Assembly: GCA_029862065.1 (NCBI GenBank)
Contig: JAOTYB010000003.1
Location: 1 to 39,986, forward strand
Direction: 5' to 3'
Source: Acidimicrobiia bacterium
GTDB taxonomy: Bacteria; Actinomycetota; Acidimicrobiia; Spongiisociales; SHLN01
DNA: 39,986 nucleotides
Shown: piece by piece, positions 2,009-35,076 of the stretch
Numbering within the stretch: position 1 is the first letter of the stretch
How the letters are laid out: the number at the start of each line of letters is the position of its first letter
Notes under the pieces: generated by a model
Told to the model about the DNA's origin: nothing
Seen by the model: the letters and a program-made list of their open reading frames with translations, nothing else
Database searches by the model: none
Position numbers and translations under genes: made by a program

Positions 2009-2051
2009 GGGGTCCCTTCTTCGTGCCTCGCCCGGCAGATCCTATCGGCGG

Positions 2052-13664: not shown

Positions 13665-13738
13665 GAGTCGGGTTTATGCTGGCCGAGGGCAAATGGTACC
13701 TGGAACCGATCCGGTGCCCGGCGCCCTCCAACATCCAC

Positions 13739-16297: not shown

Positions 16298-16314
16298 CCG
16301 CTCCGCCGGGATGG

Positions 16315-16728
16315 CTAGGACCGGCGACTGATCGCCGTGAGCTCTCGCTTGAGCCGCGGAGTGAGCCGGCCCATCAACTCCGCCGGGATCGGCGGCACGG
16401 TTGACCGCACGAAGATTCGCGAGCCCTTCTCAACCACCAGACCCACTCGGGCCAGGGCGGCCAGATTGATGGGACATTTGATGGCCTTTCGCCGCTTGGC
16501 CGCCTGCATGACCCTGAGCAGATCGGCAACTGCCCCCGCGCCGATCGCCGCCGTCCAGTAGCGACGCACGTAGTGATGGTTGACCGGATAGCCGCCCGGT
16601 GCGCTCCATATCAAGGGTCGGATGGTGGTTCGCCGGTGAACGGTCGGCCGGGTGAGGGGGCTGCGGTCCGCAGTGCCGGGCACCGGAATGGGAGGACGAG
16701 CATTTCGACGTGGCACTGCGGACCGCAT
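16315..16728 (-). CDS. small basic hypothetical protein
   Basis: 137-aa ORF filling the gap between PBP and moeB; Arg/Lys-rich; preceded by a promoter-like TTGACG-N18-TATTGA 7 nt before the ATG. Confidence 0.7.
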   Translation of the reverse strand: MRSAVPRRNARPPIPVPGTADRSPLTRPTVHRRTTIRPLIWSAPGGYPVNHHYVRRYWTAAIGAGAVADLLRVMQAAKRRKAIKCPINLAALARVGLVVEKGSRIFVRSTVPPIPAELMGRLTPRLKRELTAISRRS

Positions 16729-16735
16729 GGCCTCA

Positions 16736-16768
16736 TCAATACCATTTAGAACGATATTACGTCAATAT
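16736..16768 (-). promoter_or_regulatory. sigma-A-type promoter with an operator-like palindrome over the -35 box
   Basis: Minus strand TTGACG (16765-16760), 18 nt, TATTGA (16741-16736); palindrome ATATT-ACGTC-AATAT at 16754-16768 in an AT-rich patch. Confidence 0.5.
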
Positions 16769-16806
16769 TCGTGGTTTAAAACGCGAAAAGAATCATAGGC
16801 AGTACG

Positions 16807-16835
16807 CGGTCGGCTGTCGGCTGTCGGCTGTCGGC
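16807..16835. repeat. 7-bp tandem repeat (CGGCTGT)n
   Basis: cggt cggctgt cggctgt cggctgt cggc directly upstream of the moeB -10 box. Confidence 0.85.
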
Positions 16836-16844
16836 GAACTGAAA

Positions 16845-16856
16845 TAGACTCTGCCG
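16845..16856 (+). promoter_or_regulatory. -10 hexamer for a probable leaderless moeB transcript
   Basis: TAGACT, 6 nt, then ATG 16857; no Shine-Dalgarno. Confidence 0.55.
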
Positions 16857-18008
16857 ATGCCAACCTTCAAGGAACTCGTGGCGGCGGCCCGGGCCAGGAT
16901 CACCGAAGTCACGCCCGAGGAGGCTGAACAAGCCCTGGGGCGAGCGCTCTTCATCGATGTGCGGGAGAGCAACGAATACGAAACCGGCGCCCTCGCCGGC
17001 GCGGTCCACATTGCCCGGGGGGTGCTCGAGAGCAGCATCGGTTTGAGAGCCCCCGACACATCCGCCGAGATCATCCTCTATTGCGCCGTCGGCGAGCGCT
17101 CGGCACTGGCCGCCGAGACGCTTGAGGGCCTCGGCTACACCAACGTCGCGTCGCTGGCGGGAGGCGTTGAACGCTGGAAGCGGGAAGGGCGACGGTGGGA
17201 CACGCCCCTCACGTTGCGAGGAGACCAGCGCAGCCGCTACAGCCGCCACCTGCTCCTGCCCGAGGTGGGCGAGGCCGGACAGGCTGCCTTGCTCGACGCC
17301 CGGGTGCTCCTGGTGGGAGCCGGAGGGTTGGGATCGCCTGCCGCCCTCTACCTGGCAGCGGCCGGTATCGGGACCCTTGGCATCGTCGATCACGATGTGG
17401 TCGACGTTTCCAACCTGCAGCGCCAGATTCTGCACGGAACCGACCGCATCGGCAGCCCCAAAGTGGAATCGGCCCGGGAAACGCTTCGCAACATCAACCC
17501 CGACGTCGACGTGGTGCCCTTCAAGGAGCGGCTCTCGGCCGACAATGCGGTCGACCTGGTCGCCGCCCATGATGTGGTGGTGGATGGTGCCGACAACTTC
17601 CCCACACGCTACCTACTCAACGACGCTTCCTTGCACGCCCGCCGTCCCGTCGTGCATGGCTCGGTCTTCCGCTTTGAGGGTCAGGCGACCGTCTTCCAGC
17701 CATACGCCGGACCGTGTTACCGCTGCCTCTCACCGAGCCCTCCCCCGGCCGACCTCGCTCCATCGTGCGCCGAGGCCGGAGTGCTCGGTGTGGTGCCGGG
17801 CATCATTGGTTCGATACAGGCACTGGAGGCCATCAAATTGATCCTCGGCATCGGTGACCCACTCATCGGAACGCTCCTCGCCTTCGATGCCCTCGAGGGC
17901 GAATTCCGCCGCCTGACCTTCCGCCGTGACCCCGGGTGCCCGGCCTGCTCGGATGAGGGCTCCCCACCTCGCATCATCGAATACGACGAGTACTGCATCC
18001 CCGGGTAG
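16857..18008 (+). CDS. moeB: molybdopterin-synthase adenylyltransferase MoeB/ThiF family with N-terminal rhodanese domain
   Basis: Rhodanese (IDVRE, YCAVGERS, SLAGG) followed by RYSRHLLLPEVG, GAGGLGSP, SNLQRQ, DGADNF, CYRC, CAEAGVLG, CPAC. Confidence 0.92.
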   Translation: MPTFKELVAAARARITEVTPEEAEQALGRALFIDVRESNEYETGALAGAVHIARGVLESSIGLRAPDTSAEIILYCAVGERSALAAETLEGLGYTNVASLAGGVERWKREGRRWDTPLTLRGDQRSRYSRHLLLPEVGEAGQAALLDARVLLVGAGGLGSPAALYLAAAGIGTLGIVDHDVVDVSNLQRQILHGTDRIGSPKVESARETLRNINPDVDVVPFKERLSADNAVDLVAAHDVVVDGADNFPTRYLLNDASLHARRPVVHGSVFRFEGQATVFQPYAGPCYRCLSPSPPPADLAPSCAEAGVLGVVPGIIGSIQALEAIKLILGIGDPLIGTLLAFDALEGEFRRLTFRRDPGCPACSDEGSPPRIIEYDEYCIPG

Positions 18009-20103: not shown

Positions 20104-22227
20104 ATGAGAACTCACCTAGCCGCGCGCGCTGGGCGCTGGCTCGGCATCGGGCTTGCTCTGTCGTTGGTGCTGCTCCCGGCTCCGGCATCGGCCGCCGACC
20201 CGAGCGAGCCAACCGAGCCCACGTTCACCTTCACAGGTGGCGGGTACGGCCACGGCACCGGCATGAGCCAGTACGGCGCCCAGGGTCAGGCACTGGAAGG
20301 ACGCAGTTGGCAAACCATCCTCAGCACCTACTTCACGGGGGTGGACTTCGCCCTGCTTCGCACCAGCCCGGCCCCCGGTCAGATCGGAGATGAGGGCCCG
20401 TTGTGGGTGGGACTCGGACAGGACCTCACCCACCAGGAAATCCGCATCTGGCCGATCGCCGAAAACCCCACCGCGGTAACCGTGACCCGCGGCGCCGAGA
20501 GCATCGCCGTCCTCCCCGGTCCCGACAACATCCTCACGTTCGACTTCACGCCCTCCGGCTGCACCTTCAGCGTGGCGGGCGTCAGCTGGCCGGCCGGCGC
20601 CTGCCACTTCGACATGGAGTGGGACGGCTGGGCCGAATCCCCCACAGTCGCCCTCGACACGACCCTCACCGACTTCGACCCCGAGTGCGATCGGTCCGGC
20701 GAACGCTGCTACTCGCGGGGCAGCATGAAGATCCGCCCCAATGTTGCCGTTGGAGACACCCCGAGCGGGTTCCACCTGGTGGTGAACGTCGACATGGAGG
20801 ACTACCTCTACGGGCTGTTAGAGGTCCCGTACAGCTGGCACCCCCAAGCCCTGGCGGCTCAGGCAGTGGCCGGACGCTCCTACGCCGCCAACAAGCAAGC
20901 ACTGCGAGGCTCCCCCGAGGAGAAGACCATCCGCCAGGAGCTGTGCTGGTGCGAGTTGTACGACTCGACTGTCGATCAGGTGTACGGAGGCTGGGGTCGC
21001 GGCGTGCCGGCCTGGCTGGACGCCGTCGACGCAACCGCCGGAATCGTCCTCTATCACCCGGCCGTGACGGCTCCGTCGTTCCATCCGCGGCCCGGCCAGC
21101 CGGTGGCAGTCCCGACGTTCTATTCCTCCTCCACCTTCGGCCACACCGAAGATTCGGGAGTCGCCTTCGGCGGCTCATTCACCCCCAGCTACCTGGTCGG
21201 CGTCCCCGACCCATGGTCCACCCTCCCTGCAACCGGCAACCCCCTCGGCACCTGGGAGAAGGAAATCACTCGCACCCAGCTAGCCGGCATGGTGGGCCTC
21301 GACACGGTGGATCACGTAGCCGTCGTCTCCTGGTTGCGACAGGGCACCGCCTACCAGAGCGCCTATCAGCTGACCTTTTCCGGGACCAAGAACGGTGAGT
21401 CCGACACCGTTACCCGCTTTGCTCGGCAGCTCAGGACTCCTCTCGGCTTGTGGTCGATGCAGATAACCGGTGTCACAAAATTCGTGCCCGACGGCTGGGT
21501 CGATACCGGCGGAGGCTCAGATGCCCCGGACCAGATCGGCATGCACGACCCGCTCACCGGCCGGTGGCATATTCGCGATGCCGATGGCACCGTCCGCCCC
21601 GCCTTCTACTACGGGGACCCAGGCGACATCCCCCTGACCTGCGATTGGAACTTCGACGGGGTGAGCACCGTCGGCCTCTACCGTCCCACCGCCGGCTTCA
21701 TGCATCTGCGCAACAGCAACGACCTGGGGGTGGCCGATCTCAGCTTCTACTTCGGCATTCCCGAGGACGTGCCAATCTGTGGCGACTGGAACGGAGACGG
21801 CTTCGAAACCATCGGCATCTACCGCCCGTCAACGCGTGTCTTCCACCTGGCCGACACCAACGAAACCAAGTTCGCCGACTACGACGTGGTGCTGGCCGCC
21901 CCCGGGTCGGTTCCGCTGGCCGGGGATTGGAACGGGAACGGCTTCGACACGATTGGCCTGTACGACCCGGTCAGCCGGGTCGTGTCCCTGACCAACTCGT
22001 TGAGCAACCCAACCATCGCCATCAGCTACGACTACAACACCATTCCCGAAGACAAGATCATCACCGGTGATTGGGACGGAGACGGTGACGACACCGTCGG
22101 GGTGTTTCGCCCGCCGGACCTGGCGTCCTATCTTCGAGACGACTTCGTGATGACATCCTCCAACCACCAGATAGAAGACTTCGGCGAGGCTCACTGGACG
22201 CCGGTAGCCGGAGTGTGGGCCGGCTAG
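20104..22227 (+). CDS. secreted SpoIID/LytB-domain protein with C-terminal five-repeat FG-GAP-like propeller module
   Basis: Signal peptide ending PASA-A; GGGYGHGTGMSQYGA; MEDYLYGLLEVPYSWHPQALAAQAVAGRSY; DSTVDQVYGG; FYSSSTFGHTE; YLVGVPDPW; C-terminal GDWNGDG repeats. Confidence 0.88.
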   Translation: MRTHLAARAGRWLGIGLALSLVLLPAPASAADPSEPTEPTFTFTGGGYGHGTGMSQYGAQGQALEGRSWQTILSTYFTGVDFALLRTSPAPGQIGDEGPLWVGLGQDLTHQEIRIWPIAENPTAVTVTRGAESIAVLPGPDNILTFDFTPSGCTFSVAGVSWPAGACHFDMEWDGWAESPTVALDTTLTDFDPECDRSGERCYSRGSMKIRPNVAVGDTPSGFHLVVNVDMEDYLYGLLEVPYSWHPQALAAQAVAGRSYAANKQALRGSPEEKTIRQELCWCELYDSTVDQVYGGWGRGVPAWLDAVDATAGIVLYHPAVTAPSFHPRPGQPVAVPTFYSSSTFGHTEDSGVAFGGSFTPSYLVGVPDPWSTLPATGNPLGTWEKEITRTQLAGMVGLDTVDHVAVVSWLRQGTAYQSAYQLTFSGTKNGESDTVTRFARQLRTPLGLWSMQITGVTKFVPDGWVDTGGGSDAPDQIGMHDPLTGRWHIRDADGTVRPAFYYGDPGDIPLTCDWNFDGVSTVGLYRPTAGFMHLRNSNDLGVADLSFYFGIPEDVPICGDWNGDGFETIGIYRPSTRVFHLADTNETKFADYDVVLAAPGSVPLAGDWNGNGFDTIGLYDPVSRVVSLTNSLSNPTIAISYDYNTIPEDKIITGDWDGDGDDTVGVFRPPDLASYLRDDFVMTSSNHQIEDFGEAHWTPVAGVWAG

Positions 22228-22248
22228 GCCCTAACCTCGCAGCTATTG

Positions 22249-23262
22249 ATGGATACCTCACTCGTCCTGGTCACCCACAACTCCGAAGCCCACATCGAAG
22301 CGTCCCTCGAAATCCTGCTCACCGACCCGCACGGCCCTGATGAGATCATCGTCGTCGACAACGCCTCGACCGACGCCACGATCGGCATCGTTGAGCGGAT
22401 GGGTGTCAAGCTCGTCACGCTCGATGAGAACCATGGCTTTCCCTATGGCTGCAACCTCGGGGCATCGCTCACCCGCGGGGAAGTCATTGCCTTCCTCAAC
22501 CCCGACACCGAGCCCAAGCCAGGATGGCTGCCGCCACTGGTAGCCGCCATCCAGCGCCCGGAGGTGGGAGCCGCCATGCCGGTGATGGACCTCACCTATG
22601 CACCCGACCACTGGTTCACCTCCGGCAGCGCCCTCACCTTTCTCGGCTTCGCCTGGTCTACCAACAGCGGCGACCCCATTCCCAATGGCCTGAGCGAGAT
22701 CGAAGTCCCGTTCGCCTCGGGGGCAGCCTGCGTCATGGACCGGGCACTGTTCGACCACCTTGGCGGGTTCCGCGATGAGTACTTCCTCTATCTCGAAGAC
22801 GTCGACCTCGGGTGGCGGATCCGGCTGATGGGCCTCAAGAGTGTTCAGGTTCCGGAGTCACGAGTGTCTCACGACTACGAGTTTGGACGGCATGAGCGCA
22901 AGATGTACTACCTGGAACGCAACCGCCTCCGCATGGTGTGGGCCAACTACCAGCCATCCACCCTGGCGCTCCTCGCCCCGGCTCTGATCCTGGTGGAGCT
23001 GGCGGTGGTGGCTGCCGCTATCCGGCATGGATGGATGCGGCAGAAAGTCCAGAGCTGGTGGGGGTTCTGGAAGCTGCGCTCGCTGTTGCATCAGGAGGCA
23101 TTGCGATCGCGTTCCATCCGGGAGGTCAGCGACGGCGAGATCCTCGCGTCAATGGATGCTTCCTTCGACGGAATCAATCAGTTCGAAATCCACCCGCTCG
23201 TCAGGTCCTTGAACCGCCTGGCCATTGGCTATCTCAAGCTGGTCCAACGCCTGGTTCGCTAG
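22249..23262 (+). CDS. GT2 glycosyltransferase (WbbL/rhamnosyltransferase-like)
   Basis: VTHNS, VDNASTD, GFPYGCNLG, FLNPD, SGAAC, GGFRDEYFLYLEDVDLGWR, YYLERNR. Confidence 0.9.
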   Translation: MDTSLVLVTHNSEAHIEASLEILLTDPHGPDEIIVVDNASTDATIGIVERMGVKLVTLDENHGFPYGCNLGASLTRGEVIAFLNPDTEPKPGWLPPLVAAIQRPEVGAAMPVMDLTYAPDHWFTSGSALTFLGFAWSTNSGDPIPNGLSEIEVPFASGAACVMDRALFDHLGGFRDEYFLYLEDVDLGWRIRLMGLKSVQVPESRVSHDYEFGRHERKMYYLERNRLRMVWANYQPSTLALLAPALILVELAVVAAAIRHGWMRQKVQSWWGFWKLRSLLHQEALRSRSIREVSDGEILASMDASFDGINQFEIHPLVRSLNRLAIGYLKLVQRLVR

Positions 23263-24473
23263 TCCCAGGCTCCTGCCACCGGAGCCGAGCCGTTCGAACC
23301 GAACGCGACGATGACATCCTGTGCGCTCGGTTCATGACCGAGCAGCAGGTGGAACTCATCAGTGGCCGGGCGCAGATACCCGAGGGTGTCTGACCCATCG
23401 GCGTTCCAGTCGCCAACCACGATCTGATCGCCGGCCAGGATCTCGGTCCGTGGGAGTGCCAGGACGTTGCCCAATCGAGTTCCGCCGTCGGCCAGATACA
23501 CCATGCCGGTTGCGGGGCGGAATAGGCCGACGCTGTGATGGCCGTCGCCGAACCAGTCGCCGGCCAGTGGAACGTCGCCGACCTCGCCAAAGCGGATTTC
23601 GGCATCGGCAAACCCGTAGGAGTTGCTGTTGCGGAGATAGAAGGTCCGATCACTCGGTCGGTAGATGCCGATGGTCTCAAGCCCATCCCCATCCCAATCG
23701 CCACAGAGGGGGATGTCCTCGGGGATCCCGTAGAAGATGGCGACATCGGCAACTCCGAAGTCGTTGCTGTTGCGCAGGTAGAGATACCCGCTCGCGGCGC
23801 GGTACAGACCGACCGTGGTGTCACCGTCTCCATCCCAGTCGCAGGTAACCGGGACGTCGGACGGGACGCCGTAGTAGAAGCTCGACGGGGAGCCGTACAG
23901 CGCCCAGGTGCCGCGGGCGGGGTCGTGCAGGCCGACCCGGTCGGCGCCAGGCGGGAACCGGTAATCGTCGCTCTCGGCGGCGCCGGATAGCCCCTCCGGG
24001 CCACGCATGAACACGACGGTGACGAACATCGAGCCGTCCTCGCGGATCACCACTCCGACGCCCGCATAGTTGGAGTTGCCGACCACGTTGGCCCGGTGGA
24101 CGTCTGATTCCCAGAAGGCCCGATCCAGCCCGCCGACGTCGTAACCCACGCCAACATTCTCGCCAAGGGCGTACCAGTTGGTCGTGACGCTTCCCAGGGC
24201 CGGGTTGTGGCAGATTCGGTCACCGTTCGGACAGTGCCCCTGGGACTGAAACAGGCTGTGGTCGCGGGCGTCGTCCACCAGATCCCAGTAGGGGGCGAGC
24301 GGCGCCAGGCTGGCCTCGGCCCGGCGCTGGTTGATCAATCGCAGGAACTCAGATTCGGCCCAGGCCTCATTGGTGCCGGCGGCTCCGGCCGGCAGGCTCA
24401 CGGCAGACAGCACCATCAACACGGCCGTCATGAGGATGATCATCCGCCGAACTAACACCGGGGGGCCTAGCAC
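23259..24473 (-). CDS. secreted CAP (SCP/PR-1) domain protein with C-terminal five-repeat FG-GAP-like propeller module
   Basis: Signal peptide; LINQRR..LAPL, ARDHS, HN, GENVG, SDVHRAN, GVGV; four GDW-type repeats plus a split fifth. Start GTG 24473 or ATG 24443. Confidence 0.88.
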   Translation of the reverse strand: MLGPPVLVRRMIILMTAVLMVLSAVSLPAGAAGTNEAWAESEFLRLINQRRAEASLAPLAPYWDLVDDARDHSLFQSQGHCPNGDRICHNPALGSVTTNWYALGENVGVGYDVGGLDRAFWESDVHRANVVGNSNYAGVGVVIREDGSMFVTVVFMRGPEGLSGAAESDDYRFPPGADRVGLHDPARGTWALYGSPSSFYYGVPSDVPVTCDWDGDGDTTVGLYRAASGYLYLRNSNDFGVADVAIFYGIPEDIPLCGDWDGDGLETIGIYRPSDRTFYLRNSNSYGFADAEIRFGEVGDVPLAGDWFGDGHHSVGLFRPATGMVYLADGGTRLGNVLALPRTEILAGDQIVVGDWNADGSDTLGYLRPATDEFHLLLGHEPSAQDVIVAFGSNGSAPVAGAWD

Positions 24474-24500
24474 TTTCTGTGGTATTCCTGCTCACGGATA

Positions 24501-24530
24501 GCATCGGAATATGCCGGAATTACTGAAGGG
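24501..24530 (-). promoter_or_regulatory. sigma-28-like promoter (TTCA-N15-TCCGATGC) for the CAP gene
   Basis: Minus strand CCCTTCAGtaattccggcatatTCCGATGC; closely resembles the promoter of the GH26-like gene. Confidence 0.55.
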
Positions 24531-24563
24531 GGCCAACGCCCAACGAACCGCTGTGGGGGGTCA

Positions 24564-24607
24564 GGCATCCGGCATCCGGCATCCGGCATCCGGCATCCGG
24601 CATCCGG
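24564..24607. repeat. 7-bp tandem repeat (GGCATCC)x6
   Basis: Six perfect copies at 24564-24605. Confidence 0.95.
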
Positions 24608-24640
24608 GGCGTTCCCAACAAGACCTATTGACGCAAGACC

Positions 24641-24880
24641 GGAAAGCGAGCGGAGCGAGCGCCTTCCCCCGGAAAGCGAGCAAAGCGAGCGCCGGACACC
24701 GGAAAGCGAGCAAAGCGAGCGCCGGACGCCGAAAAGCGAGCAAAGCGAGCGCCGGACGCCGAAAAGCGAGCAAAGCGAGCGCCGGACGCCGAAAAGCGAG
24801 CAAAGCGAGCGCCGGACACCGGAAAGCGAGCAAAGCGAGCGCCGGACACCGGAAAGCGAGCAAAGCGAGCGCCGGACGCC
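24641..24880. repeat. 30-bp tandem repeat x8 (G(G/A)AAAGCGAGCAAAGCGAGCGCCGGAC(A/G)CC)
   Basis: Eight head-to-tail 30-bp units; the first is divergent; no spacers. Confidence 0.95.
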
Positions 24881-24920
24881 GGTAGCCGGTTAGCCGGTAG
24901 CTGGTAGCCGGTAGCTGGCT
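24881..24920. repeat. degenerate 7-bp tandem repeat GGTAGC(C/T)
   Basis: ggtagcc ggttagcc ggtagct ggtagcc ggtagct ggct, running up to the stop codon of the GH26-like gene. Confidence 0.85.
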
Positions 24921-26664
24921 AGCGAACAGCTAACGCATCTACGAACCCTGACTCCACAACGTCGAGGGTGTAATCGGCGGGTCCGACTGTGTTGGTCATT
25001 CGGAAGTAGACCTTGTCGGTTGACGACCGGTAGACGGCAACGGTGTCGAACCCGTCGCCGTTCCAGTCGCCGGCCATGATCCGATCGGAGGGATCGCCGT
25101 AGAAGAACTCGAACTCGGCGATACCGGTGGTGAGGCTGTTGCGGAAGTAGACGAGCCCGGTCGACTCACGGTAGAGGCCGACGGTGGTGAAGCCATTCCC
25201 GTTGAAGTCACCGGTAAACGGACGGTCCCCGGCCAGCCCGAACCAGAAATCGAAGTCGGCGGGTCCGGTCCCCAGCGTGTTCTTGATGTAGACCCGGCCC
25301 GTCCGGTAGATGCCGAGCGTGTCGCAGCCGTCGTTGTTCCAGTCCCCGACAATCGGGATATCCCCGGGGTCGCCGTAATAGAACTCGACGTCGGCCACGC
25401 CCACGGTGTTGCTGTTACGCAGGTACACGAAGCCGTTCGACTCGCGGTACATACCGGGGGTGGCCGTACCGTCGCAGTTCCAGTCCCCCATGAGCGGCGT
25501 GTCCGCCGGGTTGCCGTAGTAGAAGGCGTTGATCGGAGCTCCGGCCTGGACTTCCGCCAGGAGGTTGATTTCGGATCCGGGGTCGACGAACGCCACCGTG
25601 TCGCACTCGAAGCCGTCGGGACAGGGACCGTCGAACTGGGCAAACGGGAGCGGGCCAGCCTGGAACCAGTTGGTCAGCGGGAACTGATAGCTGGTGGTCG
25701 CTCGCCGCATCCCATCCCGGTAGCCCCACCATCCCGGCTTGATCGGTGATGGATCGTCGTTGTCCCAGATCCACCAGTCGTAGGACGGCACGACGGCAGT
25801 CTGATCCTTGTTGAAGTAGATGAAGCCGACCAAGTTGGGATCCTCTTCGACGAAGGTGAACATGTCCAGCATCCACTGGTTCTTGTCGCCTCCGGCAGTG
25901 ACGCTCCCCACCTGGGCAAGCAGGAACGGCTTGCCGGACGCTCCGGGGATGGTGGCCCGAGCCTCATCGACGTAGGGACCGATCGCCCCGGCCGGGGTCA
26001 ACCATCCGTTATAAACATCGGGGCTGCCGAAGTTGTAGGTGCTGAAGGAAATGACATCCACGTAGGCGTCGCCCGGGTAGTAGTCGGCTATCCCGTAGGG
26101 CAGCTCCGACCATCCGTTGGGAGAGAACGCCCAGCGCACCTTGTCGGGATCGGTGACCGTCGACTCGACGATCGACCGGATCTTGATGTAGGCGGTCTTG
26201 AAGTTGGCCGGGTCCATGCCGTACGGAACCCAGTCGCCGTTCATCTCCTGCATGGGAGCGATGATGAGCGAACGACCCCCGCCATCATCCAGCCAATCCT
26301 TGACTTTGAGGGCCCAGGAAGTGATCTGAGCGTCGCGCGACGGGCCGGCGAGGGTGGCCGCCGTCTCGGTGAACTCGAGATTCGAGAACGGGGTGGCCCC
26401 GGCCGCCCACATGGCTTCGAGCTTGTTGACGGTCCAGACCTCGTCGATGTTGTGAAACAGGCCGCCGAAGGTGTGGTACTGCCAGGCGGCGCCTGAGATG
26501 GCATTCAGTTCGGCGGTGTAGTCGAGCGTCAGGGGATACAGGCCGCCATGCACGGTGCCCTCTCCGAAGATCATGTCCGGGGGATCAGCATGGGCGGACT
26601 GGCCCATGCCGGGCAGCGTCGCCAGGAGGGCGAGCGCAATGACGGAAATGGCAATCCTGCGCAT
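24919..26664 (-). CDS. secreted GH26-like (beta-mannanase fold) protein with C-terminal five-repeat FG-GAP-like propeller module
   Basis: Start reassigned to ATG 26664 (signal peptide MRRIAISVIALALLATLPGMGQSAHA); PMQEMNGDWVPY, WAFSPN, YYPGDAYVD, KPFLLAQ, GFIYFN; GDW repeats. Confidence 0.82.
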   Translation of the reverse strand: MRRIAISVIALALLATLPGMGQSAHADPPDMIFGEGTVHGGLYPLTLDYTAELNAISGAAWQYHTFGGLFHNIDEVWTVNKLEAMWAAGATPFSNLEFTETAATLAGPSRDAQITSWALKVKDWLDDGGGRSLIIAPMQEMNGDWVPYGMDPANFKTAYIKIRSIVESTVTDPDKVRWAFSPNGWSELPYGIADYYPGDAYVDVISFSTYNFGSPDVYNGWLTPAGAIGPYVDEARATIPGASGKPFLLAQVGSVTAGGDKNQWMLDMFTFVEEDPNLVGFIYFNKDQTAVVPSYDWWIWDNDDPSPIKPGWWGYRDGMRRATTSYQFPLTNWFQAGPLPFAQFDGPCPDGFECDTVAFVDPGSEINLLAEVQAGAPINAFYYGNPADTPLMGDWNCDGTATPGMYRESNGFVYLRNSNTVGVADVEFYYGDPGDIPIVGDWNNDGCDTLGIYRTGRVYIKNTLGTGPADFDFWFGLAGDRPFTGDFNGNGFTTVGLYRESTGLVYFRNSLTTGIAEFEFFYGDPSDRIMAGDWNGDGFDTVAVYRSSTDKVYFRMTNTVGPADYTLDVVESGFVDALAVR

Positions 26665-26671
26665 GCCCGAA

Positions 26672-26707
26672 ACATCGGCAAGGCGCCGGAAACCTGAAGG
26701 GTATGCT
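26672..26707. promoter_or_regulatory. back-to-back promoters: sigma-28-like on the minus strand (TTCA-N15-GCCGATGT) and TATGCT -10 on the plus strand
   Basis: Minus strand TTCA 26698-26695 and GCCGATGT 26679-26672, 7 nt before ATG 26664; plus strand TATGCT 26702-26707, 6 nt before GTG 26714. Confidence 0.6.
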
Positions 26708-26713
26708 CCCGCG

Positions 26714-27694
26714 GTGCCGCCCTCCGTGTCCATCCTGCTCCCGGTACTCAACGAGGCCGACTTCCTCGACCCATGCCTGGCCAGTCTGACCGCCCAGGAC
26801 TACCAAGGCTCAATCGAGATCGTGGTAGCCGACGGCGGATCAACCGACGGCACCCGGGAACGGCTTGAGGAGCTGCACCGGCTCGGCCGGGTCGTCCTAG
26901 TTGACAATCCCGACCGGCGTCAGTGGGCCGGCCTCAACCGGTCGGCGGAGGTTGCATCCGGAGAAATCCTGGTGCGGGTGGACGGGCACTCGACCTACGA
27001 GCCGGATTACGTGGGTTCCTCGGTAGCGGCTCTTTCCGAGTCGGCGGCGACGGCGGTTGGCGGACGGATGATCCCAGAGAGCGACAATCCGATCGGCAAG
27101 GCGATCAGCTCGGCCATGGCCAGCCCCTGGGCTGTCGGACCCGCCCGCTATCGACATCAGACTCACCGATCCGAGGTAGACACCGTGTACCTCGGAGCAT
27201 TCCGGGCCGATGATTTCACCCGGCTGGGCGGCTATCGGGATCTGCCGGGGGTGGCCGAAGACACCGACCTGTATTACCGATGGCGAAAACAGGGTGCCTC
27301 AATCGTCCTCGACCCCGCCATCCGTTCCCGCTATCGCCCTCGCGACAGCTGGGGCGATCTTGCCCGCCAGTACTACCTCTACGGATGGGGCAAGGCCGAC
27401 ATGGTCTATGCCAATCATGAGCTCCCCAGTTGGCGTCCCTTGGCACCCTTAGCCCTGGTGGTTGGATTGATCGGAGGCGGGGTGCTGGCCGGCTTCCTGA
27501 TGTGGTGGCCGCTGCTGTCTCTGGTGGCGGCCTGGGCTGCCGTTCTCGGATGGGTGGCGTTGGCGGCGGGCGAAGGGCTCATCCATCGCCTCCGCACCGG
27601 ATTGGCCACCGCCACCATGCAGCTGGCCTTTGGCGCAGGGCTGCTGGGAGGCCTCCTGCGAGGGCCGGGACCACGGCGGCACCTCCGCGGGTAG
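26714..27694 (+). CDS. GT2 glycosyltransferase (ExoA-like) with C-terminal TM helices
   Basis: Start reassigned to GTG 26714; SILLPVLNE, ADGGSTDGT, RVDGH, VDTVYLGAF, AEDTDL, RQYYLYGWGK. Confidence 0.88.
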   Translation: MPPSVSILLPVLNEADFLDPCLASLTAQDYQGSIEIVVADGGSTDGTRERLEELHRLGRVVLVDNPDRRQWAGLNRSAEVASGEILVRVDGHSTYEPDYVGSSVAALSESAATAVGGRMIPESDNPIGKAISSAMASPWAVGPARYRHQTHRSEVDTVYLGAFRADDFTRLGGYRDLPGVAEDTDLYYRWRKQGASIVLDPAIRSRYRPRDSWGDLARQYYLYGWGKADMVYANHELPSWRPLAPLALVVGLIGGGVLAGFLMWWPLLSLVAAWAAVLGWVALAAGEGLIHRLRTGLATATMQLAFGAGLLGGLLRGPGPRRHLRG

Positions 27695-27709: not shown

Positions 27710-28855
27710 TCAAGAATGGGGCGTGTGATACCACCCGCGAACCCGCGAGCTCATGATCCGCACCGGCAGCCATGCCAATCCGAAAACCACCAGCAGCGGA
27801 TAGCGCCAGAGGTAGCGGGCGGGGATTCGGTCCCGAATAAGGAAGATGATCGGCGCCCCGACCTGCAAGCCGACGATGATCGCCCACACCCACCACGGCC
27901 ACAGCAGATCGGTGAAGACGGCGGCGACCGCCAGGGCGGCTGAGATGGCCACCATGAAGGTGCGGCCGGGTTGGCTCTGACGGATGACCAGGTCGACCAG
28001 TCCCCACGAGCGGCGCCGGGCGGCTTCGATCAGCAGCGAGCGCCGGTATGTGCGGGCCACCGAGCGCTTGCCCGACATCCACCTGGCCCGCTGCCGCATG
28101 GCGACACCGATAGACGCCGGCTTCTGGTCGTACACCTTCACCGTGTGCAGCCAGGCAATCCGGTGGCCGGACATCACCAGGCGGGCCGCTTGTTCAGAAT
28201 CTTCCGTCAGTGCTCCGTTGTCGGACTCGAGCACCCAGGTAGCGGTTGGAGCAAAGGCGGTGCCGGTGCCGCCGAGGTCGGGGGCCCAGCCGAGGTTGTG
28301 TCTCGCCAGCTGAACCATCCGGTTGCTCGACCAGTAGCTGAGCGCTGAGGCAGTGGTGAGCCAGGAGGCGTCAGGGTTGGAGGTGTCAACGTAGGCCTGG
28401 GCGGCGTCGTAACCATTGTCGAGCGCCGCCGCCACTCCATTGAGGAAGGTCGGATCAACCCGATTGTCGGCATCCAATATCACCAACGACTCGTCCGGTT
28501 CGAGCGGGGCTGCGGCCAGATACCAGGCGAGGGCGGCCCCTTTTCCGTCCGGACCATCGTGGCGTTCGATCACCTGGGCAGGCGGGACGACCACTGCGGT
28601 GTCGTCGGTGCAGCGATCGGCAATCACAACCACCCGAACCTTTTTGGACGGATAGTCCTGGGCAGCCAGGTCGGCGAGAAGCGACCCGATGACGACCGCC
28701 TCGTTGTGAGCCGGGATGACAACCCGCAGCCGGCGTCGTCCCGACCCACGTCGGATGTTGGCCTGATGAGGCAGTCCCCACAATGCAACAACCAAGTTGT
28801 AGGCAGGCAGCGCGGCAACGAGTACCTGGGAAACGAGGAGAAGGATGCGTAACAT
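27710..28855 (-). CDS. membrane GT2 glycosyltransferase (cellulose synthase/IcaA-like, D,D,D,QxxRW)
   Basis: IPAHNE, ADRCTD, GKGAAL, LDADN, LTEDSE, RQRARW; N- and C-terminal TM helices; start ATG 28855. Confidence 0.88.
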   Translation of the reverse strand: MLRILLLVSQVLVAALPAYNLVVALWGLPHQANIRRGSGRRRLRVVIPAHNEAVVIGSLLADLAAQDYPSKKVRVVVIADRCTDDTAVVVPPAQVIERHDGPDGKGAALAWYLAAAPLEPDESLVILDADNRVDPTFLNGVAAALDNGYDAAQAYVDTSNPDASWLTTASALSYWSSNRMVQLARHNLGWAPDLGGTGTAFAPTATWVLESDNGALTEDSEQAARLVMSGHRIAWLHTVKVYDQKPASIGVAMRQRARWMSGKRSVARTYRRSLLIEAARRRSWGLVDLVIRQSQPGRTFMVAISAALAVAAVFTDLLWPWWVWAIIVGLQVGAPIIFLIRDRIPARYLWRYPLLVVFGLAWLPVRIMSSRVRGWYHTPHS

Positions 28856-28884
28856 CGCAGCCCGCAGGCTACCCGGGATGCGCC

Positions 28885-29976
28885 ATGTCCAACTCACACT
28901 CAATCGTCGTCGCCCTCGGCACCCGCCCGGAGATCATCAAGCTGGCGCCGATCATCCGCCTGCTCGGCGAGCGGGCCCGGGTCGTCCATACCGGCCAGCA
29001 CTACGATCCCGGCCTGTCCAAGGTGTTCTTCGATGCGTTTGGCCTCCCCGAGCCCACCTATCGGCTTGAGATCGGCGGCAGCACCCGGGCTACCCAATTG
29101 GGTGAGGCCACTCGCCTGATCGGCGAGCATCTCGCCAGTGAGCCCGCGGCGGCGGTAGTCGTGCAGGGCGACACCAACACCACTGCCGGTGCCGCCTTGG
29201 CCGCCAATGCCACCGAGACGCCGCTGGTGCACATTGAGGCCGGCCTCCGGTCGTTCGACCGGGCCATGCCCGAAGAGCACAACCGGATCGTCACCGACAT
29301 GCTGTCCGATCTGTGCTGCGCTCCGACTCAGGTGAGTGAGAAGAACTTGCTCGACAGCGGTATACCTGCCGACCGCATCGCCGTCACCGGCAACACGGTG
29401 GTGGAGGCCGTCCGTACCCTGCTGCCCGAAGACCGGTCCGCTTACCTCGAAGGTCATGGTGTCACCGCCAACGGTTATCTGCTGGCAACCTTCCACCGGC
29501 CGGAAAACGTTGATGACCCGGAGACGCTCGGGACCATCCTGTCAGAGTTGGCCGCCCTCGAGCTGCCCACCATCCTGCCAATCCACCCCCGAACTCGCGC
29601 CCGCATCGAGTCGTTCGGCCTGGGCGACCAGCTCGACCGCCTCATGGTCGTCGAGCCGATGGGCTTCCAGGAGTTCCTGGCGCTGTCGGCAGAGTGTGCG
29701 GCGCTCGTGAGCGACTCGGGAGGCGTCCAGGAGGAGGTCAGCGTGCTGAAAAGGCCGGTGCTGGTGGTGCGCCGCTCCACCGAACGGCCTGAGGTGCTGG
29801 GCACGTTTGCCGAGCGAGTTCTGCCGGGGCCCGAGATCAGCCGGATCGTTGGGCAGTGGATCGCCGACCTGCCGGCACTGCACGGCCGGCTAGCAGCCAT
29901 TCCCAGCCCCTACGGCGACGGGGATGCGGCCGAACTGTCGGTGACAGCGATCAACCAGCTGGTTGGGACCTCGTAG
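28885..29976 (+). CDS. wecB: UDP-N-acetylglucosamine 2-epimerase (non-hydrolysing)
   Basis: GTRPEIIKLAP, HTGQHYD, VQGDTNT, HIEAGLRSFD..MPEEHNR, TFHRPEN, SDSGGVQEE, TERPE, PYGDG. Confidence 0.93.
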   Translation: MSNSHSIVVALGTRPEIIKLAPIIRLLGERARVVHTGQHYDPGLSKVFFDAFGLPEPTYRLEIGGSTRATQLGEATRLIGEHLASEPAAAVVVQGDTNTTAGAALAANATETPLVHIEAGLRSFDRAMPEEHNRIVTDMLSDLCCAPTQVSEKNLLDSGIPADRIAVTGNTVVEAVRTLLPEDRSAYLEGHGVTANGYLLATFHRPENVDDPETLGTILSELAALELPTILPIHPRTRARIESFGLGDQLDRLMVVEPMGFQEFLALSAECAALVSDSGGVQEEVSVLKRPVLVVRRSTERPEVLGTFAERVLPGPEISRIVGQWIADLPALHGRLAAIPSPYGDGDAAELSVTAINQLVGTS

Positions 29977-30068
29977 CTGCCCGCAGGGGCCGTGGCCGTT
30001 TACCATGAGGGCCACGTAAGGGAGGCGACAATCGTCAGGCGCGCACCATCATCCAGAGACGGCCGTTG

Positions 30069-31637
30069 ATGCGGTTCGCCTATGTCTCCTCCATCGTCCC
30101 CCGCCGTCGGGAGCTGGCATCTGGCCCCATCGACGCCGAGTGGGTCGTCGATGAACGCGGCTCTAACGAGGTGGTCGTCTTCGTCGATTACGAGAGTGAC
30201 GGCACCGACCTACTGCATGAGGCGGGAGTCGAATTCCATGTGGCCCCCAAGCGCACCGTCATCATGGCGGGCGACCAGGCCGAAACCTCCGAAGAGTTAC
30301 AGGCCCGCTTGCTCATGCAGCGGCATGCCGAGGCCCCGTTCGACGCCATCATTTACGACTCGGCGCACGCCACCGACTGGGCCTGGTACCAGCCGCAGCT
30401 AGCGGCCATCCCCCGTGGTGTCGCGCTCGGCGCAGGTCCGGCTCGCGACGTGCGCCTTGTCACGTCGGTCCCGGACCTGTTCGCCCGCCACGGTCGCACG
30501 CTGTGGGCGATGACGGGAACCCTGGCGTCCGCCGACTTCTTGATCAGTGACGTAGGGGCCGATGCCTACGGGATCGACCCGACCCGCCTGCCGCCCCGCT
30601 TTTCGCTCAACCCGCTGCCGACCGCCGTCGCCCCGAGCGGACCGGCCGGGCTGGTGGCCCTGGTGGCATTGAGCGAGAGCCCGACCGGGTTGGCGACGGT
30701 CGTTGAGCGGGGATTGGCCCAAGTGACGACCGACGAGAACACGGTGATGGCAGTCATCCACCCCGATGTGGCAGTCGGGAGCGAAACTACCCGCGACATC
30801 GTGTTCGCCAGCCTGCCGGCCAGCCTGCGCGGGCGGGTTCGGCTGGCGGAGCCGTCGAGCGACGGAGTGGCCGATGGGCTGCTGGCTCAAGCCGACGTCG
30901 TGGTGGCGGCACGGGTCTCAGACCTGGCCGTACGGGCGGTGTCGGACGCGGCCGCCAAGGTCGGCAGCGTGGTGCTGGAGGGAACCGGGTTTGAGGCGCC
31001 CCGCTTCGGTGACGGAGCACTCCGCAAGGCCGAGCATCCACACCCGGTGCTGATAGCCGTGGATGGTCCGCTGGATGCGCTCATTCCGGTAGTCGACGAG
31101 ATCATCGGGGAGGCCGCGGCGGTGGTCCTGCATACCGACAACGGCTCCTGGTCGGCCCGCCGATTGTGGAAGCTGCCGGGCTCGGCCCGCGGAGGTCTGC
31201 TGCTGGTGTGCGATCCGCTGCCCTATCACGGCGAGCCCGACCCGAGCAAGCCGGCCTTCGATCTCATCGGATTCGATGCCGCTTCCTGGCCGTCAATTCG
31301 GCGGATCATCCAGAGCTCCCAGACCCTGCACGACGTGGTGGAGATGGCAGCCAGTATCGCCAACGCCCATCGCGTGAACTTGCTGGCGTTGCCGGTGATG
31401 GGCATTGCCCACGGCCGCCTCAAATCCCAGCCTGAGGCTCCGGCCTGGATCACCGATTCGGGCTCGCTCCCCCAGCCGGTCCTGGGCACCGTCGACTCCG
31501 ACGGATCAGATGCTCCCGAAGTATCCACCGCCGGGGTCAAGGAGTGGGCGGAGTCGCATGGCTTCCGCGATCGAATTCGCCTCGCCCTTCCCTGGAAGTG
31601 GGGCATTCTCAACCGGGCGATGCGCGACCGGTGGTGA
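30069..31637 (+). CDS. hypothetical protein, probably a highly diverged glycosyltransferase-fold protein
   Basis: 522-aa ORF coupled to the next gene (GTGA); only remnant GT-B-like segments (HAEAPFDAIIYD, ADFLIS, LLAQADVVVA). Confidence 0.6.
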   Translation: MRFAYVSSIVPRRRELASGPIDAEWVVDERGSNEVVVFVDYESDGTDLLHEAGVEFHVAPKRTVIMAGDQAETSEELQARLLMQRHAEAPFDAIIYDSAHATDWAWYQPQLAAIPRGVALGAGPARDVRLVTSVPDLFARHGRTLWAMTGTLASADFLISDVGADAYGIDPTRLPPRFSLNPLPTAVAPSGPAGLVALVALSESPTGLATVVERGLAQVTTDENTVMAVIHPDVAVGSETTRDIVFASLPASLRGRVRLAEPSSDGVADGLLAQADVVVAARVSDLAVRAVSDAAAKVGSVVLEGTGFEAPRFGDGALRKAEHPHPVLIAVDGPLDALIPVVDEIIGEAAAVVLHTDNGSWSARRLWKLPGSARGGLLLVCDPLPYHGEPDPSKPAFDLIGFDAASWPSIRRIIQSSQTLHDVVEMAASIANAHRVNLLALPVMGIAHGRLKSQPEAPAWITDSGSLPQPVLGTVDSDGSDAPEVSTAGVKEWAESHGFRDRIRLALPWKWGILNRAMRDRW

Positions 31638-33460
31638 CCGAATGGCCGACGGTCACCGTCATCATCGGTGGTGATGGTTCGACAGCGGAGGCCCGCCACA
31701 CAGCTGCGTCCCTCCGGCACAGTGTCTACCCGGGGGAGCTCCAGATCCTCAGCGGAGCCGAGGACGAGCTCGGCTCGCCGACGGAGATCGCCAACGATCA
31801 CGTAGGGGAAGCCAAAGGTGCATATATCTGGATGGTTCCCCCCGGCACCACCCTCGACCCCCACTGCCTTCACCGGCTGGTGATGCGTGCCGAGGCCGAC
31901 CCGGCGACGGTTGCCGTCGCCCTGCAGTGGCGGGCAAGTGACGGGTCGGTACTCGAGGCCGGCAGCCACCTGCTGGCCTCGGACGAAATCGGCCCGCTGT
32001 TCCACGGCGGTTCGCTGCCTGAGTGGCTGACCGGCGGACCCTATCGAACTCGGGTCAGCTCACAACCGTCGCTGCTCATCCGGGCGCAGGACTTCTTCGT
32101 CGCCGGTGGCTTCAATCTCGAGCTGGACGGGTCCCCCTATCAGGCCGCTTACCTGGCCCTCGCCCTGACGGCCGGTGGAAGCCGCATCGAGGTCGAGACC
32201 CGGGCCATTGCCTTCGCTCCCCCGGCCCAGCCGGTCAGCGAAAGCGAGCTGGTGCGGGGACGGAACGTCCTCCAGCGAGACTTCTCCGACGGCCTCAACC
32301 AGCTCCACTATCAGTCCTCTATCGACGCCGACCTCAGCGTGCTCCTCGGTGACCAACGCGGCACCCGCACGCTGTGGGCTGCCTCCCACTTGCCAGATCC
32401 CAACCGTTCGGGCGCTGATGCTCGCCACCTCGAGATGATCCAGGCGCTCGTGGCCGGTGAGGATGAGGTCGTTGTGTGGGCGACCCACACCGACGGATCG
32501 GACAGCCGGGCACTCGACAACCTGGGAATCCGGTGGGTGGCCCAACCGCACGTCCGCCGATGGGACCTGCGACAGAGCGACAAGAAGTTCCCCTGGCTGC
32601 GCGAGCTGGTTCGCCAGCTTCATTGGGATCACCTGGTGATCGCCGATCCAAACCTGGTGGCCAGGGTGGCCCCGCTTATCCGCGAGCATTCCCCAGACAC
32701 CGCCATCATTGCCGACCTGGGGAGTGTCCGCCACTCGGCCGCCCATGCTCCGGCGTCGGGGACCGCGGCCGGCTTCGACCTCCCCGGCCTCTCGGAGGTC
32801 GATGCCGTCGTGGCCGCCACTGGTCCCGACCAGGCGGCACTCGCCGGCGACCACCCTGCCTCGTTCGGGTTCTCCGCGCTCGGCCACGGTCAACCGGTAC
32901 CGGCCAACCGGGACGGCGGCCTTTTGTTCGTCGGCAATTTGCTGCATCGTCCGAATGCTGAGGCGATTGATTGGTGGACCGACTCCATCGCCGGACGGGT
33001 CGAGGCTCGCATGGGGCGACGAGTTCCGCTGCGGGTGGTTGGCAATGGCTCCGAGCTCTACCGCCACAACTGGAACCATCCCGCCAAGGTCGAGATCGGT
33101 GGATGGTGCCCGGACCTCAGTTTCGAGCTGAGCGACAGCCGGGTCTTTCTCGTGCCGCTCCTCTATGCGACTGGAACAGGCGGGCGCATCGCTACTGCCC
33201 TCGCCCACGGGGTCCCCACCGTGGTGTCTGTTCCCGCCGCCGCCATGCTGCCTGCAGAGCTGCGGGACCTGGTCAAGGTGGGAGAGACGGCCGACGAGTT
33301 GGCGGACCACGTCGCCACCCTCATGAGCGACGACGGGGCGTGGGGAGAGGCCTGTCGACGTTTGGCCGCCTGGGACGCACCCTTGTTCCGGCAACAACAG
33401 CAAGACGCGTTCGCCCGATGGGCAGCCACGCTTGAGACCTCGGTGCCCGCTTCGGCCTAG
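31634..33460 (+). CDS. two-domain glycosyltransferase (degenerate GT2-like N-terminus + GT4-like C-terminus)
   Basis: WPTVTVII, DGSVLEAG, AGGF; C-terminal LLFVGNLLHRPNAEAIDW, RVFLVPLLYATGTGGRIATALAHGVPTV. Confidence 0.75.
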   Translation: MTEWPTVTVIIGGDGSTAEARHTAASLRHSVYPGELQILSGAEDELGSPTEIANDHVGEAKGAYIWMVPPGTTLDPHCLHRLVMRAEADPATVAVALQWRASDGSVLEAGSHLLASDEIGPLFHGGSLPEWLTGGPYRTRVSSQPSLLIRAQDFFVAGGFNLELDGSPYQAAYLALALTAGGSRIEVETRAIAFAPPAQPVSESELVRGRNVLQRDFSDGLNQLHYQSSIDADLSVLLGDQRGTRTLWAASHLPDPNRSGADARHLEMIQALVAGEDEVVVWATHTDGSDSRALDNLGIRWVAQPHVRRWDLRQSDKKFPWLRELVRQLHWDHLVIADPNLVARVAPLIREHSPDTAIIADLGSVRHSAAHAPASGTAAGFDLPGLSEVDAVVAATGPDQAALAGDHPASFGFSALGHGQPVPANRDGGLLFVGNLLHRPNAEAIDWWTDSIAGRVEARMGRRVPLRVVGNGSELYRHNWNHPAKVEIGGWCPDLSFELSDSRVFLVPLLYATGTGGRIATALAHGVPTVVSVPAAAMLPAELRDLVKVGETADELADHVATLMSDDGAWGEACRRLAAWDAPLFRQQQQDAFARWAATLETSVPASA

Positions 33461-35036: not shown

Positions 35037-35076
35037 GGGACGGAATGGTACCCGGGGCCGGGTTATCGGGCGGGGA

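Follow-up and report, generated by a model that had tools for sequence, protein, structure and literature searches.

Three unrelated exported proteins encoded in a 39,986-nucleotide stretch of an Acidimicrobiia bacterium genome (GCA_029862065.1, contig JAOTYB010000003.1, positions 1 to 39,986; hereafter the window) end in the same module of about 225 residues, which is predicted to fold as a closed five-bladed propeller. Based on sequence comparison and structure prediction, we propose that this propeller is the lineage's general non-covalent wall anchor, binding in a lectin-like manner to the polymer made by the glycan locus that surrounds the three genes. We give this reading a probability of about 0.68, with the polymer as ligand being its weaker half. 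Non-covalent wall anchors determine which exported proteins remain on a Gram-positive cell. To our knowledge, the established types are few, namely LysM, SH3b, choline-binding repeats, GW, SLH and CWB2.

The first carrier gene (20104-22227, + strand) encodes a SpoIID/LytB-family peptidoglycan enzyme (PF08486, E = 3.3e-13; TIGR02669, 1.3e-32), the second (23259-24473, - strand, likely start ATG at 24443) a CAP/YkwD-like protein (PF00188, 1.2e-5), and the third (24919-26664, - strand) a GH26-like glycoside hydrolase (PF02156, 2.2e-7). All of these Pfam and NCBIfam matches lie in the non-module part of the proteins; the modules themselves, at 21529-22224 (+), 23262-23945 (-) and 24922-25605 (-), had zero matches in either library at E ≤ 1. 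The original prediction, made from the DNA letters alone, described three secreted proteins with a signal peptide each and a homologous C-terminal module. Open reading frames (ORFs), alignment and a hidden Markov model (HMM) of the module agree with this description, and all three N-termini are signal-peptide-like according to our own heuristic, which we used to score signal peptides throughout. Named orthologues come from metagenome-assembled genomes (MAGs) of Acidimicrobiia, those of the SpoIID protein with 71-77% identity.

The three modules align over 241 columns with a mean column identity of 64%, the second and third being 48% and 42% identical to the first, and each is recovered at E = 1e-113 to 1e-125 by an HMM made from the three. 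Each module consists of four units of ~47 residues and a fifth that is divided between both ends. The unit takes the form F-Y-Y-G-x-P-x-D-x-P-x-x-G-D-W-[ND]-G-D-G-x-[DE]-T-x-G-x-Y-R...L-R-N, in which DxDxDG-type loops (D-W-[ND]-x-[DN]-G) are spaced 45-49 residues apart. In all three modules, these loops come directly behind strand A of blades 1-4, with one degenerate copy in the CAP protein (DWFGDG). For the SpoIID and CAP modules, the two halves of the fifth repeat are an N-terminal D.(I/V)G.HDP and a C-terminal PVAG.W; this closure motif is degenerate in the GH26-like module. The ungapped identity between 47-residue units was 37-38%, compared to 7.1% (standard deviation 0.5%) for shuffled units (n = 11 units, a set which leaves aside blade 1 of SpoIID). 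Given the shared repeats, the unit identity relative to shuffled sequences and the split fifth unit, the shared module is therefore confirmed, far beyond chance.

We folded the SpoIID module with AlphaFold2 on the basis of 16 aligned paralogous modules found in its own genome. The resulting model (mean predicted local distance difference test, pLDDT, 88.9; predicted template modeling score, pTM, 0.83) contains 19 strands in a closed five-bladed propeller, as had been foreseen from the repeats. Four blades are complete and four-stranded, and the fifth combines the N-terminal strands 2-7 and 12-16 with the C-terminal strand 224-228 in a velcro closure, so that the arrangement of four full repeats plus a split fifth is seen both in the sequence and in the model. 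Among 48,161 representative PDB chains searched with VIA, tachylectin-2 (1tl2_A) ranked first (Z 13.4, root-mean-square deviation 3.2 Å over 197 residues), with model residues 1-227 superposed onto chain residues 5-236 at 4% identity in the structural alignment. The next structural match was 9oee_A, UmbA4 with Streptomyces griseus teichuronic acid (Z 13.0). It was also the top Foldseek match (6.1e-7) and the sole PDB match at E ≤ 1 for a profile of the 16 modules (8.9e-7, chain residues 377-644). Both structural searches returned lists made up largely of propellers.

At the sequence level, FG-GAP_3 (PF13517) was weakly matched by 13 of the 16 modules from the same genome when these were scanned singly at E ≤ 10 (best 6e-7). 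The SpoIID module alone matched only FG-GAP_3 (E = 3.5, same cut-off), and the modules of two further carriers, L010 and L018, contain sub-threshold FG-GAP_3/FG-GAP matches; the whole window proteins gave none at E ≤ 1. The nearest ESM Atlas clusters are Actinomycetota proteins labeled "FG-GAP-like repeat." The Tachylectin Pfam family had zero matches at E ≤ 1 in the proteins and at E ≤ 10 in the 16 modules, and there were zero Pfam matches to SLH (PF00395) or CWB2 (PF04122) in the module, whose predicted fold differs from theirs too. Sequence and model together place the module in the VCBS/FG-GAP supercluster as a divergent member with a tachylectin-like fold. This supercluster joins integrin FG-GAP propellers, PVL lectins and tachylectins, and includes the "VCBS actinolectins," an uncharacterized, actinobacteria-only, secreted branch (PMC8023676). 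The loops of blades 1-4, first described as FG-GAP/VCBS-type motifs, are probably Ca2+-binding. An ordinary seven-bladed integrin-type FG-GAP propeller was ruled out, since the model is five-bladed and the PVL and integrin matches were weaker and partial. Catalytic five-bladed propellers of the GH43/GH32 type scored lower (Z ≤ 11.5) and shared no sequence signal with the module.

The module HMM found 24 carrier ORFs in the genome to which the window belongs (G000, a 2.14-Mb MAG in 255 contigs), 12 with the module at the N-terminus and 12 with it at the C-terminus. A signal-peptide-like start was present in 20 of the 21 carriers with an intact N-terminus, which bears out the expected enrichment on secreted proteins. 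The remaining carrier, the only one in G000 with another kind of N-terminus, is L017 (G000:C6:10510-12657, - strand), a multi-pass membrane protein that weakly matches TgpA_N (transglutaminase-like) and has a partial propeller module at its end. The partners of the module in G000 amount to ~17 unrelated families: SpoIID, CAP, GH26, M23, M15_4, YkuD with PG_binding_1, PASTA, S8, GDSL (two), beta-helix (three), CEMIP/G8, GSDH, CHRD, apiosidase-like (two) and DUF3048. When the SpoIID module was aligned with its paralogues from the same genome, identities to the first sequence were 36-46%, and blades 1 and 2 were the best conserved (17 and 13 of 47 columns at ≥80%).

Across 41 genomes of the same order, the module was matched in 30. 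All 13 relatives in family f1 had 17-66 matches each, and five genomes of three other families (G014, G036, G021, G032 and G017) had 17-40 each; the remaining genomes had 0-4 matches, or weak ones only. Of the 19 module-rich genomes (at least 17 matches), 17 had no SLH match, G008 had one marginal match and G017 had 10. SLH was found in 16 of the 22 other genomes (2-44 matches). CWB2 was found in two of those 22, G019 (23 matches) and G039 (22, together with SLH), and five of the 22 had neither the module nor SLH nor CWB2. If the unpublished genomes G017 and G028 are left out, the SLH figures become 17/18 and 15/21. Thus, the module and SLH are nearly mutually exclusive across the 41 genomes.

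Beyond the order, 26 of 301 genomes in a sample of the phylum matched the module at E ≤ 1e-20, and full-length, high-scoring modules in this sample were confined to the window's order; at most nine candidates were scored per genome, so both statements concern presence and not counts. In a representative library of 1.84 billion proteins, 30,827 matched at E ≤ 0.001, and 7,448 still did so under the stricter cut-off of E ≤ 1e-30. As a separate observation within the order, a full-length propeller module (G024:C90:7892-8584, E = 1.5e-88) sits on a 1682-residue ORF in an SLH-type genome with 25 SLH matches.

The position that the module occupies on homologous proteins of sister genomes is taken by known anchors. 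The SpoIID part alone was found in 39 of the 41 genomes. Outside the family of the window, we surveyed the region C-terminal to this part in 18 ORFs belonging to 16 genomes (15 module-poor or module-less genomes plus the module-rich G032). SLH above the cut-off followed in eight ORFs (G018, G020, two in G023, G031, G034, G037 and G040) and marginal SLH in two (G024 and G035). Three CWB2 repeats followed in two ORFs (G019 and G039), classical FG-GAP repeats in two (G027 and G016), PG_binding_1 and RTX repeats in one each (both G022), the propeller module in one (G032) and no recognized domain in one (G033). The GH26-like homologues behave similarly, with the module at the end in module-type genomes and two to three SLH repeats in G018, G020, G040 and G028.

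The same picture emerges from the complete SLH-type genome G037, in which we scanned 18 SLH-bearing ORFs. SLH carriers there include two CAP proteins (C-terminal SLH), GSDH (N-terminal), M15_4 with FG-GAP_3 (C-terminal), beta-helix/NosD (N-terminal), PL14 (two) and DUF4015, in addition to ten ORFs without another domain. On the CAP, GSDH, M15_4 with FG-GAP_3, beta-helix and SpoIID proteins of G037, SLH sits at whichever terminus bears the module in the G000 counterparts. The role originally suggested for the module, that of SLH and CWB2 in this lineage, is thus supported by homologues in module-poor relatives that carry SLH, CWB2 or PG_binding_1 at the same place.

The three carrier genes stand within a glycan locus, and the Pfam assignments agree with the gene content first described (three GT2, wecB, GT1/GT4-type genes, an ABC ATPase and permease, and LCP). 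A group of nucleotide-sugar genes, identified in the library scan (1073-5944, - strand), contains two NAD epimerase/dehydratases, a nucleotidyltransferase, a GT2 and a UDP-sugar 6-dehydrogenase (4682-5944). It is followed by a LytR-CpsA-Psr (LCP) ligase gene (6064-7362, -; PF03816, E = 4.4e-30, with LytR_C), the sole PF03816 match in G000. Joining a wall glycopolymer to peptidoglycan is the step expected of an LCP ligase. A conserved flank (13676-18008, +) encodes PBP1a with a PASTA domain and a ThiF-rhodanese protein. One GT2 glycosyltransferase gene lies between two carrier genes (22246-23262, +; PF00535, 1.5e-26; its homologue in the module-type locus of G036 is 40% identical), and a second (26555-27694, +) is common to module-type and SLH-type loci.

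A third GT2 gene (27710-28903, -; GT2_27710) has homologues of 50-79% identity in G036, G014 and G003 and no match in the four SLH-type loci compared. Next come a wecB/mnaA-type UDP-GlcNAc 2-epimerase gene (28783-29976, +; PF02350, 1.1e-84), a GT1/GT4-type glycosyltransferase gene (31544-33460, +), and a polymer exporter (33457-35240, -) composed of a Wzt-like ABC ATPase (33457-34326) and a Wzm-like ABC-2 permease (34194-35240). The window closes with a gene for a DUF6020 membrane protein (35077-36540, +), a second GT1/GT4-type gene typical of module-type loci (36454-38115, -; GT1_36454), and a fused glycosyltransferase gene (38103-39980, -; GT_38103) with an N-terminal GT1 and a central GT2 part, whose N-terminus lies beyond the window end and which shares 37-64% identity with its counterparts at the G003, G014 and G036 loci, all of the module type. 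The UDP-sugar 6-dehydrogenase (- strand) and wecB (+ strand) thus occur together in the window, and by gene content the pair suggests that the polymer may contain a sugar of the ManNAcA type (teichuronic-like). Between wecB and the GT1/GT4-type gene lies a 523-residue ORF (30066-31637, +) with no Pfam match; of the seven loci compared, only that of G003, from the same genus, contains a full-length homologue (59% identity).

The association between the module and this locus is kept across two families, as the proposed anchoring system had implied. In G000, G003, G036 and G014, wecB and the wzm-like permease gene lie within ~15 kb of three or more carriers, and wecB is the sole PF02350 match in G000, G036 and G014 and one of two in G003. 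In G036, whose genome is nearly closed, there are two dense carrier clusters of ~40-50 kb (C6:340000-388300 and C5:344000-381100), one of which surrounds wecB, wzm and DUF6020. Positions 363796-364629 hold a PS_pyruv_trans match.

Comparison of 27 window proteins to seven loci by tblastn showed that a backbone of PBP1, ThiF, SpoIID, GT2, wecB, wzt and wzm is common to propeller-type and SLH-type loci. Therefore, this is the same locus in both kinds of relatives. GT2_27710, DUF6020, GT1_36454, most of GT_38103 and the GH26 gene, the latter kept in G003, G036 and G014, were restricted to the propeller-type loci among the seven. SLH-type genomes instead contain a PS_pyruv_trans (CsaB-type) gene, which in eight of the ten published genomes having both is separated by 6-14 kb from the SpoIID-SLH gene, at a locus matching that of the window (G018:C123, G020:C2, G023:C27, G024:C3, G031:C8, G034:C51, G035:C58 and G037:C1). 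CsaB was present in all 12 genomes with at least 10 SLH matches, and also in G025 (four SLH matches) and the SLH-free G002, G003 (partial) and G036; csaB was not found in 15 of the 19 module-rich genomes. DUF6020 was present in 19/19 module-rich genomes versus 2/22 others, a correlation across kin genomes. A clean dichotomy of csaB versus DUF6020 was rejected, as it fails in G002, G003, G017, G036 and G022, and GT1_36454 proved a less specific marker of the module than DUF6020 (18/19 versus 3/22). Still, the gene content of the locus changes together with the anchor type, in agreement with the supposed link between the module and a glycopolymer locus.

DUF6020 is annotated as a family of unknown function, and all of its named homologues are from Acidimicrobiia. 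Its AlphaFold2 model (pLDDT 91.5) has a GT-C glycosyltransferase fold: the top 20 structural matches are all GT-C, with Pmt4 at Z 20.1 and the next fold at Z 5.9. In the first loop, the D49 and Q53 columns are invariant and D52 is nearly invariant. Judging from the model, the DUF6020 protein probably adds a sugar to the polymer outside the membrane.

Taking together the ~17 unrelated exported families, the positional exchange with known anchors, the exclusion of SLH and the co-varying polymer genes, a wall anchor would be the simplest reading. The module, which directly follows the signal peptide or forms the C-terminal end in SpoIID/LytB, M23, M15, L,D-transpeptidase, a PASTA protein and many exoenzymes, would act as a retention tag that holds Sec-exported proteins on the cell's own wall. 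Its ligand would be a secondary glycopolymer linked to peptidoglycan, most likely the product of the surrounding locus. For that polymer, the nucleotide-sugar genes and wecB would supply a ManNAc-type sugar, several GT2/GT4 enzymes would build the chain, Wzm/Wzt would export it, the DUF6020 GT-C enzyme would decorate it outside the membrane, and LCP would attach it to peptidoglycan. The propeller and the locus polymer would then take the part that SLH and a CsaB-pyruvylated polymer play in sister lineages. Within this scheme, we infer the binding itself, the identity of the ligand and its Ca2+ dependence.

The closest functional parallel is the SLH system with its CsaB-pyruvylated polymer in Bacillus anthracis and Paenibacillus alvei (PMC5817068). 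Both systems place a non-covalent N- or C-terminal tag on dozens of exported proteins per genome, and here both use the same families (SpoIID, GH26-like, CAP, GSDH, M15 and beta-helix), have carrier genes beside the polymer locus, and carry tags that replace one another at equivalent positions when homologous proteins from sister genomes are compared. They differ in that SLH is a three-repeat helical module, whereas the propeller is a single ~225-residue five-bladed unit of unrelated sequence with Ca-type loops. In addition, csaB is mostly not found in module-rich genomes, where the DUF6020 GT-C protein co-occurs instead, and binding is proven for SLH whereas for the propeller we infer it. CWB2 and the PSII polymer of Clostridioides difficile (Willing et al. 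2015, PMC4973711) are alike in that one anchoring module is common to a set of wall proteins whose genes adjoin an anionic-polymer locus, and triple CWB2 stands in the propeller's place on the SpoIID homologues of G019 and G039. CWB2 has another fold, however, acts as a trimer of repeats, is found in Firmicutes and Micrococcales, and has experimentally shown polymer binding (PMC4973711).

Among propellers, UmbA4 of the Streptomyces umbrella toxins (PDB 9oee; PMC13274773) is likewise an actinobacterial VCBS-type propeller with conserved Ca-type loops. UmbA lectins bind wall teichuronic/teichoic glycopolymer in canonical inter-blade propeller-lectin pockets, a precedent for polymer binding by propellers related to the module, and twelve five-bladed lectin families (5BP1-12) are listed for UmbA (PMC13274773). 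UmbA4 differs in having six blades, in following an inactive trypsin domain within a toxin particle, and in targeting competitors' walls (PMC13274773), whereas the module here is a general tag on 24 ORFs of a single genome. Neither a trypsin domain nor Umb partners were seen on the three window proteins, and 20 other G000 carriers scanned had no trypsin domain; UmbB and UmbC were not searched for. Tachylectin-2 (1tl2) shares the five blades of ~47 residues and matches over its whole chain, but lacks sequence kinship at the level of Pfam or of structural alignment identity, and tachylectin-like propellers are described as being without the DxDxDG loop (PMC8023676). The "VCBS actinolectins" of Pereira and Lupas (2021; PMC8023676) resemble the module by published description: they are restricted to actinobacteria, bear signal peptides and link VCBS to tachylectins. 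They differ in being reported alone or after a TIM barrel, and not as a tag on ~17 enzyme families.

Several observations weigh against the anchor reading or limit it. The G000 assembly is only 79% complete. Many carriers are degradative enzymes, which is compatible with substrate targeting too. Sortases were present in all five genomes tested; therefore, other anchoring routes exist. Module homologues with 34-41% identity and full coverage occur on peptidases of MAGs labeled Solirubrobacterales and Pyrinomonadaceae (an acidobacterium), and therefore the module is not tied to one wall type. G017 holds both the module (17 matches) and SLH (10). PS_pyruv_trans occurs in 4 of the 19 module-rich genomes (G002, G003 as a partial match, G017 and G036), near the locus in G036, and G022 has DUF6020 without the module, beside a SpoIID-PG_binding_1 gene. 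The genome counts are not phylogenetically independent: the module-rich genomes fall in four families, and clear within-family contrasts come from f2 (G014 and G036 versus G025) and f5 (G017 versus G028, both unpublished), the only mixed families. The genomes are kin and such contrasts are few, so the counts overstate independence. DUF3048 shows no swap, as its module-bearing paralogue occurs only in family f1 and its homologues elsewhere have no anchor; we regard this result as neutral. We also built our own HMMs for CWB2 (from two sequences) and SLH (from eight Pfam-placed segments), and the CWB2 HMM, weak evidence given its two sequences, had zero matches in the DUF3048 or GH26 loci. Finally, the support for an anchor is comparative or predicted throughout.

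Other ligands must be weighed against the locus polymer. The propeller could anchor to peptidoglycan itself (GlcNAc/MurNAc), like LysM, SH3b and PG_binding_1, with the linkage to the locus reflecting only the clustering of wall genes. In keeping with this, tachylectin-2 and PVL-type propellers, both among the structural matches, are sugar-binding lectins (PMC8023676) for which PDB titles state GlcNAc specificity. Moreover, many carriers act on peptidoglycan, PG_binding_1 is among the exchanged domains (G022), and module homologues occur in phyla not expected to share the locus polymer. We nevertheless consider peptidoglycan an unlikely ligand. The commonest swap partners, SLH and CWB2, bind wall polysaccharide (SLH in a CsaB-dependent manner) and not peptidoglycan (PMC5817068). 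The presence of PG_binding_1 alongside the module on the L,D-transpeptidase carrier suggests that the two bind different ligands, and the anchor type co-varies with the polymer genes of the locus, as seen for DUF6020 and for csaB beside the SLH-type SpoIID genes. Alternatively, the propeller could be a targeting lectin or carbohydrate-binding module (CBM) for foreign glycans, such as polysaccharides from algae or detritus or other bacteria's walls, much as UmbA lectins guide umbrella toxins. The closest solved relative argues in this direction and against self-anchoring, as UmbA4 recognizes another species' teichuronic acid and not the producer's wall. Glycoside hydrolases, lyase-like beta-helices, esterases and proteases are among the carriers, the 30,827 matching cluster representatives include very diverse hydrolases, and the low identity among paralogous modules leaves room for differing specificities. 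Yet own-wall housekeeping enzymes carry the module (SpoIID/LytB, L,D-transpeptidase, the PASTA protein and M15), the same proteins in sister genomes carry the self-wall anchors SLH, CWB2 or PG_binding_1, and the module and SLH nearly exclude each other. A CBM would be expected to track one enzyme class instead of ~17 unrelated families, and the conservation of blades 1 and 2 among paralogues is compatible with a common ligand. Foreign-glycan targeting therefore seems quite improbable to us.

A role with no glycan ligand at all, as a protein-protein or structural module (an integrin-like scaffold, a contact in an S-layer or lattice, or a Ca2+-dependent folding domain), strikes us as very improbable. 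Propellers of the supercluster do also scaffold macromolecular interactions (PMC8023676), integrin alpha and TcB propellers are among the weaker fold matches, and one SpoIID homologue has RTX Ca2+-binding repeats instead of the module. However, the best fold matches are lectins, the module swaps mainly with anchors that bind glycans, its link to the glycan locus extends across families, and no co-occurring partner protein was seen.

Returning to the propeller as a wall anchor, its novelty is partial. The fold family, polymer-binding anchors and the wall-polymer-binding propeller lectins of umbrella toxins are already known (PMC8023676, PMC13274773), so the claim of a new system stands for the self-anchor role and not for the fold. 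We found no paper naming a VCBS/FG-GAP propeller as a cell-wall anchor in a search that covered papers available without subscription, and a term search of a 2018 review of wall-anchor domains returned no mention of a propeller (PMC5817068). Apparently new, from genome comparison, would be a VCBS-type five-bladed propeller as a general self-anchor that replaces SLH, with a co-varying polymer locus containing a GT-C gene. More speculatively, the propeller and a DUF6020-decorated polymer may form a third anchor-polymer pair of monoderms that displaced SLH-CsaB at the same locus, and self-anchoring may have been the original job of the "actinolectins," later turned on other species' walls by the Streptomyces umbrella toxins. 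We hold this extension tentatively, at somewhat less than an even chance.

If the anchor reading is true, a structurally unrelated, lectin-type anchor with up to 66 matches per genome operates in the abundant, mostly uncultured Acidimicrobiia, and the uncharacterized "actinolectin" branch of the VCBS superfamily gains a cellular function. Candidates would be named for both the polymer locus and the determinant enzyme (the DUF6020 GT-C protein), and the locus would represent a natural case of anchor and polymer being exchanged jointly. For this hard-to-study group, the module would also serve as a new tag for surface display and as a probe of the cell wall.

Two further observations concern individual carriers. 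The CEMIP/G8 beta-helix carrier of G000 (G000:C211:1444-4665) lies ~2 kb from another ABC-2 permease gene (6452-7099), so this contig possibly holds a second glycan-export locus with an adjoining carrier. The M15_4 peptidase L013 (G000:C255:3277-5517) combines classical FG-GAP_3 repeats with the propeller module, and the M15_4 peptidase L116 (G037:C1:2353498-2356608) combines classical FG-GAP_3 repeats with SLH. These M15_4 proteins hold classical repeats in addition to an anchor, and therefore the classical repeats and the five-bladed module are not redundant.

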